From an uncultured Chlamydiae bacterium (lineage in GTDB: Bacteria; Chlamydiota; Chlamydiia; Chlamydiales; JAJFMA01), in assembly GCA_963713615.1 (NCBI GenBank), contig CAVQMM010000001.1, positions 864,001-928,000 of the forward strand: a DNA stretch of 64,000 nt. The letters run 5' to 3'. This document shows positions 19,731 to 39,373 of this stretch, piece after piece. The notes below the pieces were generated by a model. The model saw only the letters and a program-made list of their open reading frames with translations. It was not told where the DNA came from and did not search any database. Positions within the stretch are counted from its first letter, which is position 1; each line of letters opens with the position of its first letter. The position numbers and the translations under genes are program-made.

Positions 19731-20579
19731 ATGCGCCTACTCTTTACCCTCTTTGCTCTTTTTCTTCCGCTTTGCTGTCCTGCTCAGCCGCAAATGATCG
19801 CTGCTCAATATTCTCTCGATGATATCATGGGCGCAGGAGACCAAAATGCGGCAGGTATCAATACTCTTAATGCGCAGCAATTAGCGAATCTAGAAGAGTG
19901 GATCAACCTCTGGACAGTCAAGACAATTAATCAGGTCCTGTTGATGGGTTGCAAATGCACAACTCAGGACTGCCTAACAGCCTTAGTAGGACGTATGCCC
20001 ACATCACAGATGTATGCACAGCAACAGGAGTCGCCACAGCAGCCAGCACCAGTTCAGGAGCAACGCTCTAATAACCCTTACGTAAACCAAGAGCAAGGTA
20101 ACTATAGTCTGCTTACCGAAAACTTACGTAATGGAGGACTACTTCGCCTCGACGATGGTTCTATGTGGCAAGTATCTCCAACAGATCAAACGCGAGCAGC
20201 CGCATGGCATCGTGCAGACCGCATTCAGGTGCAGCCAGGACAAAGCTATGGGCAATTTACTCTATTTAATCTAACCAGAAATAGTCAGGTAAATGCAGCC
20301 CGACCTGGAGAAGCCATACGACCAGGCAATCCATTCTTAGGCGATACCTTTCGCCAAACACATACTTTTAGTGTACGTCAGAACCTGAATGATGGGGAAG
20401 TGCTGATCTTAGATGATGGGAATGCCTATGTGGTAAGATTGCCGGATCGATACAAATATTCTAAATTTTGGGCCCCAGGTACCCCTGTTGTGGTGACACG
20501 CCAAGGCGGCTTATATCCCTATTCACTCAAAAACTCTCAGACGGGAAACTTTGTTCAAGCTGACCTGCAGCATCAATAA
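19731..20579 (+). CDS. Hypothetical exported protein with two repeated small beta domains
   Basis: Signal peptide, GAGGAG RBS; repeated LRLDDGSMWQV / LILDDGNAYVV units. Confidence 0.7.
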   Translation: MRLLFTLFALFLPLCCPAQPQMIAAQYSLDDIMGAGDQNAAGINTLNAQQLANLEEWINLWTVKTINQVLLMGCKCTTQDCLTALVGRMPTSQMYAQQQESPQQPAPVQEQRSNNPYVNQEQGNYSLLTENLRNGGLLRLDDGSMWQVSPTDQTRAAAWHRADRIQVQPGQSYGQFTLFNLTRNSQVNAARPGEAIRPGNPFLGDTFRQTHTFSVRQNLNDGEVLILDDGNAYVVRLPDRYKYSKFWAPGTPVVVTRQGGLYPYSLKNSQTGNFVQADLQHQ

Positions 20580-35839: not shown

Positions 35840-36082
35840 AAGCCCTCACAATCGTATATCGGCGCGCAGCGCTTTGGAGCCCCAAAAGTAATAAGGCCTC
35901 CTATGTGGCGCAGTCATTCCATGCATAGAGTGTTGCCTCACAATCGTTACTCGGCGCGCAGCGCTTTAGTAGGTAAGGGGCAGGGTTTCCCCAGCCCCTC
36001 CCTGTTATCGCAATAGGGTCAATTCCCTATATTTACCGGTATGCATCTTTCTCGCACCGGGCGATGCCCCACTGGTTGCCTA

Positions 36083-36894
36083 TTAGGGAACACAACCGAC
36101 ATTCATCCTCTTTCGACACAACTGAATACAACTCAGTATTCCAAGGCGGCGTAGATGCTTCAATTTCAACCGCAGGTTGTCACGCTTGCTGATACGTTTG
36201 TATTTCATGCAGCGCAAGCGTTTCCTGAGCCAACAGTCAGTGGTTACAAAGAACTTTTTGACTGCTGCTAACGGATGACTGAAGTAATTCACCGTCCCAC
36301 GCACTACTTGGTTTAGTTTCTCAACGGCCTTAGCATCTAAGTTCCGACTTCGGATCGTACAATTCCGTACTGCATCGCGCAATTTCTCCTTGGACTTTTC
36401 TCTTATGGTGATATGTCTGGAGGTAAAATGAAAACCTAGGAAGTCAAAGCCCTCTGAAGCATGACAAATCTTCGTCTTCTCGGGGCTTAACTCCAAAGAC
36501 ATCTCATCTTCCAGTATTCTCCTGGATAAGTCTAGGGCCTCCTTTGCCTGCATTTCAGTTCGACACAGAATAACAAAATCATCCGCATAGCGAACGAATT
36601 TGTAGCCATGACGTTCCAATTCGTGATCAAGGCGATTAAGAACAATATTGGCAAGCAGAGGAGAGATGACACCTCCCTGCGGCGTACCTTTTATGGTTGG
36701 CCGTAATTGTCCTTCCTCCATCACGCCAGACTTAAGAAATCGTTCGATGAGTTGTAGAATGTTACCATCAGCGATTTCGGAGGCTACTTCTGCCATCATC
36801 AGTTTGTGTGGAATGTTATCAAAGAAACCCTTGATATCGGCATCCACAACATATTTGTAACCCTGTGAAAGATATTCTTTCACCAGAGAGACAG
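36083..36894 (-). pseudogene. Group II intron reverse transcriptase/maturase, C-terminal part (no En domain)
   Basis: VVDADIKGFFDNIPH, GTPQGGVISPLLANI, VRYADDF, GFDFLGF, thumb/X domain. The preceding codons AGRNCHQA lie at about 38555-38579. Confidence 0.93.
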
Positions 36895-37214
36895 TCTTGG
36901 GTAGCCAACACGTAGCAGCCTTCCACAACTCGTAACAGCAATACCTTAAGTGACCTATGCATGACCAACATGTTGCAATTTCCAGTGCTTGATTGCCAAA
37001 CATTGTAGTCATTTGCACCAAAATTGCACCAAAAAAAAGAAAGCCCAGGAGGCCACGTCAAAAAAGATAAGGACTAGGTGTAAGAGAAAATTTAAAAGAA
37101 GCCGGATGCCATCAGGGTCGTTTTGGATACTGAAAAGATGTATACAAAAATTAGCATCACTTTTCATTGATTTTCTATCCCAACTTATCTAAAATAATGG
37201 AAAACGGAGACCTG

Positions 37215-37448
37215 ATGACATACAAGCCCATGGATCCGAAGATATTTAAAAAATACCTAAGACTATTGGGTTGGTCGATTCGCAAGTCTCGTGTTGATTG
37301 GTCTGTATACGATGAAAATGGAGACTTCGTATGTTCCATAATAATTTCTCATGGAAACACCAAGTCTGAAGTAGTTGCTCACAGCGTCCACAAGGTAAAG
37401 ACAAAAGTTATTGAAAAGGGGAAAACATGGCCGCCAACAAAGAGTTAG
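37215..37448 (+). CDS. HicA-like small basic protein (putative toxin)
   Basis: Alpha-beta-beta-beta-alpha pattern (FKKYLRLLGWSI...IIISHG...SVHKV); overlaps the downstream HicB-like gene; canonical GSH motif absent. Confidence 0.5.
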   Translation: MTYKPMDPKIFKKYLRLLGWSIRKSRVDWSVYDENGDFVCSIIISHGNTKSEVVAHSVHKVKTKVIEKGKTWPPTKS

Positions 37449-37834
37449 CCGAACACTTGGCTTTGGCCCTAGGAGAGGTTGGGGAAATACAGCCATGGTA
37501 TGATCGCAAATTCAAGGCTTGGGTATTCTCTCATAAGCTTTACCCAAACGTAGAATATGCCGGTCAATCCAAGCAGGAGGTCATCGAAAGATATCCTCTC
37601 TATTTAAAAGAATTTATTTATCATCGCCTAAACGACACTTTAAGCCCTTTATCCGAACGCGGAACCCGTGGCAAAGGGGGTTACCGAATTGGGGCCGGTC
37701 GCCCGAAAGGTTCAACGACAGAGCCCAAAAAACGAGTCTATCTTCCCGCTGAACTTGCAGACTGGATTTCTGAGTATTCTCACTTGGAGATGGTTCGTAA
37801 AATGATGCTTAAAGATAAATCCAAAGCATCTTGA
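37427..37834 (+). CDS. HicB-like protein with GGxRxGAGRPKG motif and RHH-like tail (putative antitoxin)
   Basis: WVF...YPNVEYAGQSKQEVIE HicB-like core; GAGRPKG; KRVYLPAELADWI. Confidence 0.55.
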   Translation: MAANKELAEHLALALGEVGEIQPWYDRKFKAWVFSHKLYPNVEYAGQSKQEVIERYPLYLKEFIYHRLNDTLSPLSERGTRGKGGYRIGAGRPKGSTTEPKKRVYLPAELADWISEYSHLEMVRKMMLKDKSKAS

Positions 37835-37904
37835 TGAATACCGCCAAAATTATCGCCTGTAAGCCTCAGCCAGGGTATAAGGTGTGGATTCGCTTTGATG
37901 ATGG

Positions 37905-38105
37905 TTAGGCTAGACAATAGATAACGTCGGTGTCCCTTGGGTGTACGCTCAACCTGGATTTTGCCAGCAGCCTCCCAACGACGGAGTGTAGCCTCGTGTA
38001 CGCCAAGTTCCTGAGCTGCTTTCTTGATACTCACCTTCATGCGCTAAAATCTATGCAATTTGCATAGAGTTGTCAAGAAATATATAGATTTTTGGCAGCT
38101 GCTGC
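37905..38105 (-). pseudogene. IS607-family left end and truncated TnpA (MerR-like HTH only)
   Basis: MKVSIKKAAQELGVHEATLRRWEAAGKIQVERTPKGHRRY; TTGACA-17-TAGATT upstream; resolvase domain missing. Boundaries approximate. Confidence 0.7.
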
Positions 38106-38106
38106 C

Positions 38107-38160
38107 AACCCTATAATTGACGCTACCGTCCTTCCGTTGCCTTGCTTCTATGATAGCCAT
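38107..38160 (-). pseudogene. N-terminal remnant of a tyrosine integrase
   Basis: GGAGG RBS then MAIIEARQRKDGSVNYRV, resembling the start of an integrase arm-binding domain; cut by the IS607 end. Confidence 0.5.
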
Positions 38161-38506
38161 GTTGTTGGTCCTCCAATTTGTGTTGAGCCTGTCAGCAGTC
38201 CGCGAAAGCCTACCATCACAGGCAAAAAAATACCACATCAGATTAGCATTCTGATGTGGCTTAGTTCGTAAAAGTCGTTTGTATCGACACTTAGATGTAA
38301 TTCGTTGGGTGGATAAACCCGATTTGGTGCACTTTTGGTGCAGTACAGAAAACAATTGGCACTTTTGAGGATCGATCAAGTGTTGTCTTGTGTTGGGAGC
38401 AAGTGCACCAAAATTGCACCATTTTCGGGACAGCACAAAGTGCAGTCCGATGGGACGTGTCAGGCGATAGGCTTGTGGATGTAGTGTCAGAGGGAAAGGG
38501 AAAGAG

Positions 38507-38557
38507 TGGGGGTGGTTGGAGTCGAACCAACGTAGACCGAAGTCGTCAGATTTACAG
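38507..38557 (-). tRNA. tRNA-Tyr(GTA) 3' fragment (att site, not a full tRNA)
   Basis: CTGTAAATCTGACGACTTCGGTCTACGTTGGTTCGACTCCAACCACCCCCA: anticodon loop, long variable arm, T arm and acceptor 3' strand. Confidence 0.88.
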
Positions 38558-39373
38558 CCTGATGACAGTTTCTGCCAGCGCCCCTATAGCACATGCTGTC
38601 TATTTGCTACGGGAAAGTCTTGCGACTCCAGCGCTTCGGCTCACTCCAGTGCTTGGCGCGCTAACGTCGGCTGAAACGTGACCCCCCCCATGGTAACGCT
38701 ACCTGACACCTTAACAGCCACACTTACGCATGGTCCTGTCTGCCTCCTCTTTCGAGGCTGGTAACGTCTTCTGCACGGGAAACAGTCCCGCACAGGTAGG
38801 CTTTGGTTGTATTTTACTGCATAAATTACTACCTCATCCGTTTGTGACTTAGTTCTAACATACCCGCGACTCGCGCGGAGTGCGGTCGCTTGCGACCGCT
38901 TTTCGTTCCTTGCGATGGTCATGTGAAACGGCATCACTATCATTCGCTAAGGGTAAAGGGTTAGTACATGCAGCCTAACCGAATCCATACGATGCCGTTT
39001 AGCACTGCCGTCGCAAGGAACCCAAAGCGGTCGCAAGCGACCGCACTCCAAAGCGCTGCGCGCCGAGATACGATTGTGAGTCAAGAAAAAGATGTGTGCA
39101 ACACTATGCATGGAATGACTGCGCCACATAGGAAATTGCGCCAGCCAACCTTTTGAATTACTTGGAAGAGCGTGTCGCTCGCGACCGCTTTGGATTTGGG
39201 TGGCTAGATATTTTACGATCTTGGCTTTATACCGCTCGCTATAGCATTTTATACCATAATCGGCCTAAAACATCGACTGTGGTATACAACAGATTCGCCC
39301 AAATCCAAAGCGCTGCGCGCCGAGCAACGATTGTGAGGGCCTGAATGACCATCGAAACTAAACAGTAAATACT

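Follow-up and report, generated by a model that had tools for sequence, protein, structure and literature searches.

Why does a group II intron sit exactly at the foot of a repeat that its host genome carries, mostly between genes, hundreds of times? The question is raised by a 64,000-nt stretch of DNA from an uncultured Chlamydiae bacterium (GenBank assembly GCA_963713615.1, contig CAVQMM010000001.1, positions 864,001 to 928,000, forward strand; hereafter the window), in which such an intron interrupts a repetitive extragenic palindromic (REP) element. Based on sequence comparison, we assign a probability of about 0.78 to the following answer. The feature is a dead copy of a group II intron without an endonuclease (En) domain. 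It belongs to a separate lineage that has class C as its sister, and it likely homed by RNA-DNA pairing through a six-base exon-binding site 1 (EBS1), a one-base EBS3 and possibly a pair at exon position −7, with no EBS2. Among its relatives the guide loop covaries with the insertion site, and the lineage therefore probably survives by directing EBS1 anew to multicopy repeats between the genes of its hosts, here the conserved foot of a REP associated with a REP-associated tyrosine transposase (RAYT).

Intron boundaries and the target repeat

The intron lies on the minus strand and extends from 38876 (GCGCG) to 35968 (..CCTACT). Its removal in silico yielded GCACTCC|AAAGCG without gain or loss of a base, and the rejoined site was found empty 348 times across the genome, in agreement with the sequence-only reading that the intron splits a REP cleanly. 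The junction coincides with the exact 5′ edge of the conserved GGAG of the REP, read on the opposite strand. Two further claims of that reading were also borne out: the DNA of the 5′ exon folds into a hairpin (−8.7 kcal) that ends 5 nt before the junction, and the "about a dozen" REP arms of the window correspond to 12 REP hairpins (22 two-strand matches versus 0.03 expected). The elements of the target site (IBS, intron-binding site) are as follows.

35939..35967, minus strand: 3′ exon, the remainder of the REP arm, starting with AAAGCG; IBS3 is its first A
38877..38883, minus strand: IBS1 CACTCC (−6 to −1) and G at −7; the other strand is the GGAG-TG foot of the REP hairpin
38882..38899, minus strand: REP hairpin of the target arm (5′ exon), from the sequence and the DNA fold
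39019..39080, plus strand: opposite, empty arm of the same ~240-nt two-armed (REPIN-like) repeat

Throughout the genome, the REP occurs mostly as an element of ~240 nt with two inverted arms. Although open reading frames (ORFs) of at least 150 aa cover 78% of the genome, 336 of the 348 copies are located outside them. A RAYT gene (NF047646, 83.7 bits at a cut-off of 80) is flanked by three REP copies on each side, and the repeat is therefore called a RAYT-associated REP. It is an atypical one, since its foot reads GGAG-T and not the GT[AG]G tetranucleotide reported at the foot of REP hairpins (10.1101/279083), and "GGAG" does not occur in the main text of that study. The RAYT gene (G000:C1:3256585-3257175; L193:1306-1896) has an HYH motif and a proline-rich start, and its flanking REPs likewise show a GGAG foot instead of GTAG/GTGG.

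Guide pairings and insertion sites of relatives

Genome and metagenome scans yielded 145 loci, 109 of them with a reverse transcriptase (RT) identity of at least 50%. A 5′ boundary together with 20 nt of exon was available for 78 sequences (window included), which were grouped into 43 clusters. Two clusters whose exon was the end of another intron were dropped, leaving 41 non-redundant introns; the start of L088 was corrected by hand. At three loci (L082, L103 and L143), the 3′ end of one intron copy is followed at once, or almost at once, by the start of another, and at two more (L106 and L109) after a few bases, reflecting either tandem insertion or an assembly loop. The host is probably an environmental chlamydia, as named Chlamydiae bins belong to its order. 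Samples of the phylum contained members of the lineage in 8 of 401 cases by protein, and the domain V pattern revealed them in 3 of 351 cases in one search and 2 of 351 in another; the loci newly found there gave no further 5′ junctions. Six genomes of the same family gave no match. Viral contigs held no member by domain V pattern (best RT identity 45%), the best plasmid identity was 39.7% among the best 40 of at least 5000 records, and a search of sequencing runs listed no RNA dataset as containing the intron.

We scanned 20 exon positions against all columns of the intron alignment. The six best pairs were exactly exon −1 to −6 with 38647-38642, i.e. with the GGAGUG that had been proposed as EBS1. 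Pairing between EBS1 and the exon averaged 5.71 of 6 bases in the 41 clusters, compared with 2.91 ± 0.20 after shuffling (maximum 3.61 in 2000 shuffles). Five or more bases were paired in 39 of the 41 introns, which carry 28 different EBS1 hexamers. Covariation thus places GGAGUG in the EBS1 loop, and the consensus fold of domain I confirmed the d3 stem-loop around it; a single-sequence fold of domain I from one relative (L075) missed d3, whereas the alignment fold found it. EBS3 was recognized as the single column complementary to exon +1 in 93% of 31 introns (z 6.8).

No run of columns corresponding to an EBS2 emerged for the exon beyond −6 (best scores 8.8 versus 32.7 for EBS1). The upstream GGUCAC, earlier considered as a possible EBS2, did not track the exon (3.51 versus 3.47 shuffled, p = 0.27). 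It pairs within domain I in 95-100% of 40 relatives, with compensatory changes, and was rejected in this role, as was every other column run.

The seventh-best pair of the scan joins exon −7 with the base two positions 5′ of EBS1. Among the 41 introns it comprises 34 C-G, two A-T and one G-C pair and four mismatches; among well-paired introns it is formed in 37 of 39 (permutation p = 1.5e-4, with only three compensatory cases and without phylogenetic correction). We regard it, from sequence comparison, as a lead to a candidate new contact.

38631..38659, minus strand: d3 stem-loop carrying EBS1, from the consensus fold, with compensatory pairs 38659-38631, 38658-38632, 38657-38633, 38652-38639 and 38651-38640
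38642..38647, minus strand: EBS1 GGAGUG; Watson-Crick fraction 0.78-0.95, z 6.5-8.8 in the 41 clusters
38649, minus strand: C two bases 5′ of EBS1, candidate partner of exon −7 (putative "EBS1a")
38677..38683, minus strand: GGUCAC, the former EBS2 candidate; 5′ strand of a domain I stem, from covariation

In nine members of the lineage (the window copy, L013, L074-L078, L134 and L142), GCACTCC directly precedes the intron and is itself preceded by a hairpin, whose stem differs between them. Other copies could have been found at unrelated sites; instead, the eight relatives and a second copy in the same genome (see below) share the REP position of the window copy. The genome harboring L013 (G008) contains 102 empty copies of the same motif, compared with none in four hosts of introns with other EBS1s. 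In one chlamydial bin (G007), 15 loci were detected, including 12 full copies that are 97.1-100% identical (mean 99.4%) and have different flanks. All 12 are located at one position of another REP, which has 92 empty copies. The comparison demonstrates a recent multi-copy spread in this bin and gives a sequence-level hint at retrohoming and self-splicing, which are predicted for the lineage. The introns L012 and L016 have target motifs of their own, found in 55 copies in the host of the former and in 20 in that of the latter. Of 15 testable sites, 13 disrupt no frame of at least 100 codons.

A hairpin of −4 kcal or better precedes only 12 of the 41 insertion sites. The upstream-hairpin rule of IIC introns, to which the sequence-only reading had appealed, therefore does not apply to the whole lineage; a hairpin may help in REP-targeting subgroups. 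Many relatives insert into 7-nt tandem arrays and not behind hairpins (5′ exons of L008, L009, L100, L110, L131 and others), one such motif being present in 55 copies in G706. The idea of the REP as a renewable safe target held in part. EBS1-guided homing into REPs is supported and renewal is seen in relatives, but the window copy is a relic, and the REP is presumed safe because its position is intergenic.

Decay of the window copy and competing explanations

DNA homology to the intact relatives of ~2.0 kb is restricted to 38876-~38600 and ~36885-35968, and the surviving 5′ part shows 67-75% identity to them. The deletion point lies at 38579/38578, domain I being lost before δ′/EBS3. In sequencing run X1, one contig joins 36890 straight to 38554, without the intervening 1663 bp. 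In another, domain I continues past 38579 into the EBS3 region, where EBS3 = U matches the A at +1. Since the X1 contigs are continuous at both points, the window copy carries two separate lesions, a deletion of ~750 nt and an insertion of 1663 bp, and is on this comparison dead. The uninterrupted X1 form is ~99% identical, with both intron ends at the same REP position; host genes had no coverage in this run, which says nothing about the host of X1.

38579..38876, minus strand: surviving 5′ part of domain I, starting with GCGCG, from identity to relatives and the X1 form
38554..38578, minus strand: 25-nt scrap of the RT frame left by the ~750-nt deletion, resembling a tRNA-Tyr anticodon arm; matches the RT DNA of L073/L074 and is joined to 36890 in X1
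36891..38553, no strand assigned: foreign insertion of 1663 bp with the 3′ half of a tRNA-Tyr (att-like), a 210-bp IS607-like fragment and two ORFs

The insertion sits at the tRNA-Tyr-like spot within the RT gene. An ARAGORN call of a tRNA-Tyr at 38506-38585 was rejected as a chimera, the true gene being located at C1:18966-19049. The insertion looks like the remnant of an integrative element, parts of which match the island behind the true tRNA-Tyr (C1:18991-19156 and 19816-20006). Its ORFs (37167-37448 and 37427-37834) had no match in a Pfam search even at E ≤ 1; by eye they might be a HicA/HicB-like pair. The IS607-like fragment (37905-38114) has seven identical copies elsewhere in the genome and behaves like a miniature inverted-repeat transposable element.

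A second intron remnant of 267 nt (C1:2449379-2449645) occupies the same REP position. It differs from the 3′ end of the window copy at one of 128 bases and retains 50 nt that were deleted from the latter. In total, the genome thus has two dead intron copies among ~350 REP sites. Other degenerate group II-type RT fragments (31-52% identity) are present at C1:2938839-2939417 and C1:2881886-2883766.

For an intact copy, we propose that the particle of spliced RNA and maturase would reverse-splice into the REP strand while this is single-stranded, pairing with it through EBS1 (6 bp), EBS3 and perhaps the −7 pair. The cDNA would be primed from a replication primer, as in other En-less introns, for which RmInt1 is the source of knowledge (PMC4615759, PMC8632793). 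A factor beyond the eight-base code, be it the hairpin, flanks read by the protein or selection against genic hits, would narrow the choice to REPs. An EBS1 fitted to the most conserved bases of a repeat would open hundreds of intergenic sites per genome, as well as the same site in other hosts with the repeat family.

Insertion could instead follow a class-C-like recognition of structure, in which a DNA hairpin 4-5 nt upstream and a short IBS1 are needed and REPs are merely the commonest such hairpins. This would agree with the position of the RT as sister to class C and with the strong hairpins of varying stem found in front of all nine members of the GGAGUG group and of the G007 copies. Moreover, 341 kb of G007 contain the minimal ~8-base code at 18 places outside REP and at 8 within it, but none of the 12 full copies lies outside REP; the code being commoner outside, a further determinant or selection appears to keep the copies there. 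We nevertheless consider a hairpin requirement rather unlikely, given its presence at only 12 of 41 sites, the many relatives in 7-nt tandem arrays or unstructured repeats, and an EBS1 of full six-base length. Furthermore, the hairpin may be maintained for the sake of the RAYT rather than of the intron. Improbable in our view is a pure survivor bias, i.e. insertion at any match to the ~8-base code with persistence only in intergenic repeats. The code is indeed short, with 133 matches outside REPs in this genome, and matches outside prevail in the G007 sample. However, 349 of the 482 matches in this genome are inside REP, indicating that the sequence of EBS1 is itself adapted to the repeat, and the same EBS1 is kept across hosts that share the REP family. 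Selection would explain why genes are free of copies, but not why EBS1 matches the most conserved bases of the repeat.

Local hitch-hiking, a doubtful but still sizeable alternative, would reduce the events in this genome to a single insertion, with the second copy produced by duplication or inversion of a composite REP, in which the RAYT may have assisted. An outer extension that is rare among REP arms (8 of 313 arms; G000:C1:285339-285514) is common to the two copies and the X1 form, and the copies adjoin opposite outer flanks of one composite. On the other hand, they decayed separately, the small copy keeping the 50 nt lost from the window copy, and neither the relatives with unrelated flanks nor the G007 copies can be explained in this way.

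Several observations count against a lineage that re-aims EBS1 at repeats. The two genome copies and the X1 form, all within the rare REP subfamily, may represent one insertion. Two of the 41 introns pair poorly with their own exon, and the permutation tests ignore phylogeny. The own target motif reaches at least 20 copies in only 5 of 12 host genomes, and has 0-3 copies in seven (G705, G707, G708, G009, G010, G012 and G710); six of the seven introns concerned are on contigs below 4 kb, for which misbinning and a collapse of repeats are probable, though unproven, causes. Two of the 15 testable sites lie inside stop-free frames of 124 and 195 codons. Finally, no replication-strand bias was found in G007 (5 versus 9), and the two copies of this genome are on opposite skew; such a bias was rejected.

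Domain V, class placement and known systems

The window copy has a 3′ part of an RT/maturase gene and domains V and VI at the following positions.

36083..36890, minus strand: 3′ part of the RT/maturase gene with YADD and domain X and no endonuclease domain (RVT_1, GIIM; TIGR04416)
36007..36065, minus strand: domain V, a predicted three-way junction; the triad CGC (36063-36061) pairs with GCG (36011-36009) past an inserted hairpin
36013..36030, minus strand: inserted 6-bp hairpin in the 3′ strand of domain V (28 sequences: 100% of cells paired, four of six pairs compensatory)
35968..36003, minus strand: domain VI with a bulged A at intron position −7 (35974) and the non-canonical 3′ end CU

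Domain V is laid out as RY-CGC-CCGG-upper stem-CCGG-UAAAU-hairpin-U-GCG-RY. In an alignment of 28 sequences, this structure had 97.6% of cells paired and 15 compensatory pairs (0 of 500 shuffles), compared with 41-50% in slid controls, and RNAalifold recovered the same junction unaided. The three triad pairs are invariant, and the case for their pairing is thus made by the fold and by the covarying pair beneath them (17 G-C, 11 A-U). The branched form was detected at 83 of 86 close loci and at none of 125 distant or reference loci. Presumably, it would keep a normal two-metal site, with the triad helix stacked on the upper stem. Rfam (Intron_gpII for a simple stem-loop domain V) gave no match in the window or in five relatives, but did so in two class C controls.

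Several features identify the lineage as group II introns, namely (i) an RT/maturase with YADD and domain X; (ii) EBS1-IBS1 and EBS3-IBS3 pairing; and (iii) a domain VI with a bulged A. It departs from the usual form in its domain V, which is no simple stem-loop, and in its ends, which are not the canonical GUGYG...AY: among 86 loci, introns start with GCGTG (36), GCGCG (21), GTGCG (17), GTGTG (7) or GTACG (2) and end with ACT (43), TCT (42) or CTC (1). Close homologues of the RT are short, with RVT_1 and GIIM and, as the sequence-only reading had stated for the window, no endonuclease domain; they are mostly found on ~2-kb contigs, and intact relatives exceed the TIGR04416 cut-off.

In both RT trees (quick IQ-TREE and FastTree), the lineage formed a long-stemmed clade with support of 100; its sister group comprised class C and two divergent RTs (support 91 and 97, respectively). 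It fell outside class C, for which there were only three references, labelled from context and domain V. It was also separate from the D, g1, g2 and g3 references of PMC3552965; the trees were without labelled A, E, g4, basal F and c-Ku.st.I1. The latter, 2018 nt long, is unclassified in Table S2 of PMC3552965. Two RTs grouping beside class C (L164 and L035) have a domain V of class C length with an AGC triad. The lack of EBS2 agrees with class C, whereas a shortened EBS1 with an obligatory upstream stem-loop does not apply, all six EBS1 positions being covariant. The IIB-like classes D, E and F/g1-g4 have EBS2-IBS2 (PMC3753933), for which the lineage gave no signal. It is possibly a new class of group II intron.

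A bolder joint reading, which we hold tentatively and at slightly less than even odds, is that these mobile group II introns would form a class without a name so far, which would have class C as its sister and be common among uncultured bacteria. On this reading, (i) rewriting of EBS1 would turn REPs and other intergenic repeats of the host into a fourth target strategy; (ii) opening of the DNA target would rely on a novel EBS1a-IBS1a pair at −7 and not on EBS2; and (iii) the catalytic domain V, a three-way junction, would have the arrangement of the U6 stem-loop, helix II of U2/U6 and helix Ib, offering a natural model, within one RNA, for a splitting of domain V into U2 and U6. A review of 2015 names three target strategies in bacteria, i.e. 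homing sites, terminators and attC (PMC4424553). Host repeats targeted through a guide that is re-aimed time and again would be a fourth strategy and would connect retroelements with the biology of REPs and RAYTs. With ~8 bases read by RNA, no EBS2 and 28 natural reprogrammings, it would provide a test set for targeting rules and possibly a simple targetron. With the branched domain V, a natural ribozyme becomes available for a long-standing question, namely whether a strand break of the U2/U6 type is compatible with the group II active site. In addition, domain V searches miss a family with many members. Our literature searches found no account of REP-homing group II introns or of an insertion in domain V; c-Ku.st.I1 or another member may be described in Simon et al. 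2008 or in the intron database, both outside the search.

Helix Ib of the spliceosome contains the U6 triad paired with U2, and helix II connects the 3′ end of U6 with the 5′ end of U2 (PMC6294511). As in this U2/U6 core, the partner strand of the triad in the branched domain V is not the direct continuation of the upper stem (PMC6294511; PMC4424553). Unlike U2/U6, the branched domain V is part of a single uninterrupted RNA, has a CGC triad and comes from bacteria; the resemblance is one of topology and does not demonstrate common descent. The inserted hairpin presumably stands at the place of U2/U6 helix II.

The candidate contact at −7 has the geometry of EBS2a-IBS2a in IIB1/IIB2 introns, where the base two positions 5′ of the EBS pairs with the exon base just upstream of the IBS (PMC8643678). 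EBS2a, however, is located in the EBS2 loop and reads −14, whereas the candidate is in the EBS1 loop and reads −7; an identity of the two was therefore rejected. The authors found no homologue of EBS2a-IBS2a in other subgroups, according to the available part of that paper.

A fixed insertion point inside REPs is likewise known from the insertion sequences ISPpu9, ISPa11 and ISRm22, which, unlike the intron, move by DNA transposases (PMC1525189). Group II introns of P. putida were near REPs in only two of nine cases, and the available part of the same paper proposes no match to a guide RNA. Closer in mechanism, RmInt2 (class D) homes into the inverted repeats of ISRm17 and is likewise En-less, with many targets through a repeated DNA end; it uses EBS2 and one family of insertion sequences, whereas the present lineage has no EBS2 and has moved between many repeat families (PMC4615759).

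The nearest known group in both RT trees, and the one providing the best structural matches, is class C (IIC; GsI-IIC PDB 6ar1, maturase 7uim, attC-type introns). The lineage is distinguished from it by an RT identity of ~35-40% in plasmid matches and its long separate stem, a six-base EBS1, a longer domain I, the branched domain V, the CU end, the lack of an Rfam match where controls score, and a hairpin at only 12 of 41 sites. Common to both are the absence of an En domain and of EBS2, the CGC triad, the branch A at −7, and the location of many sites behind a hairpin.

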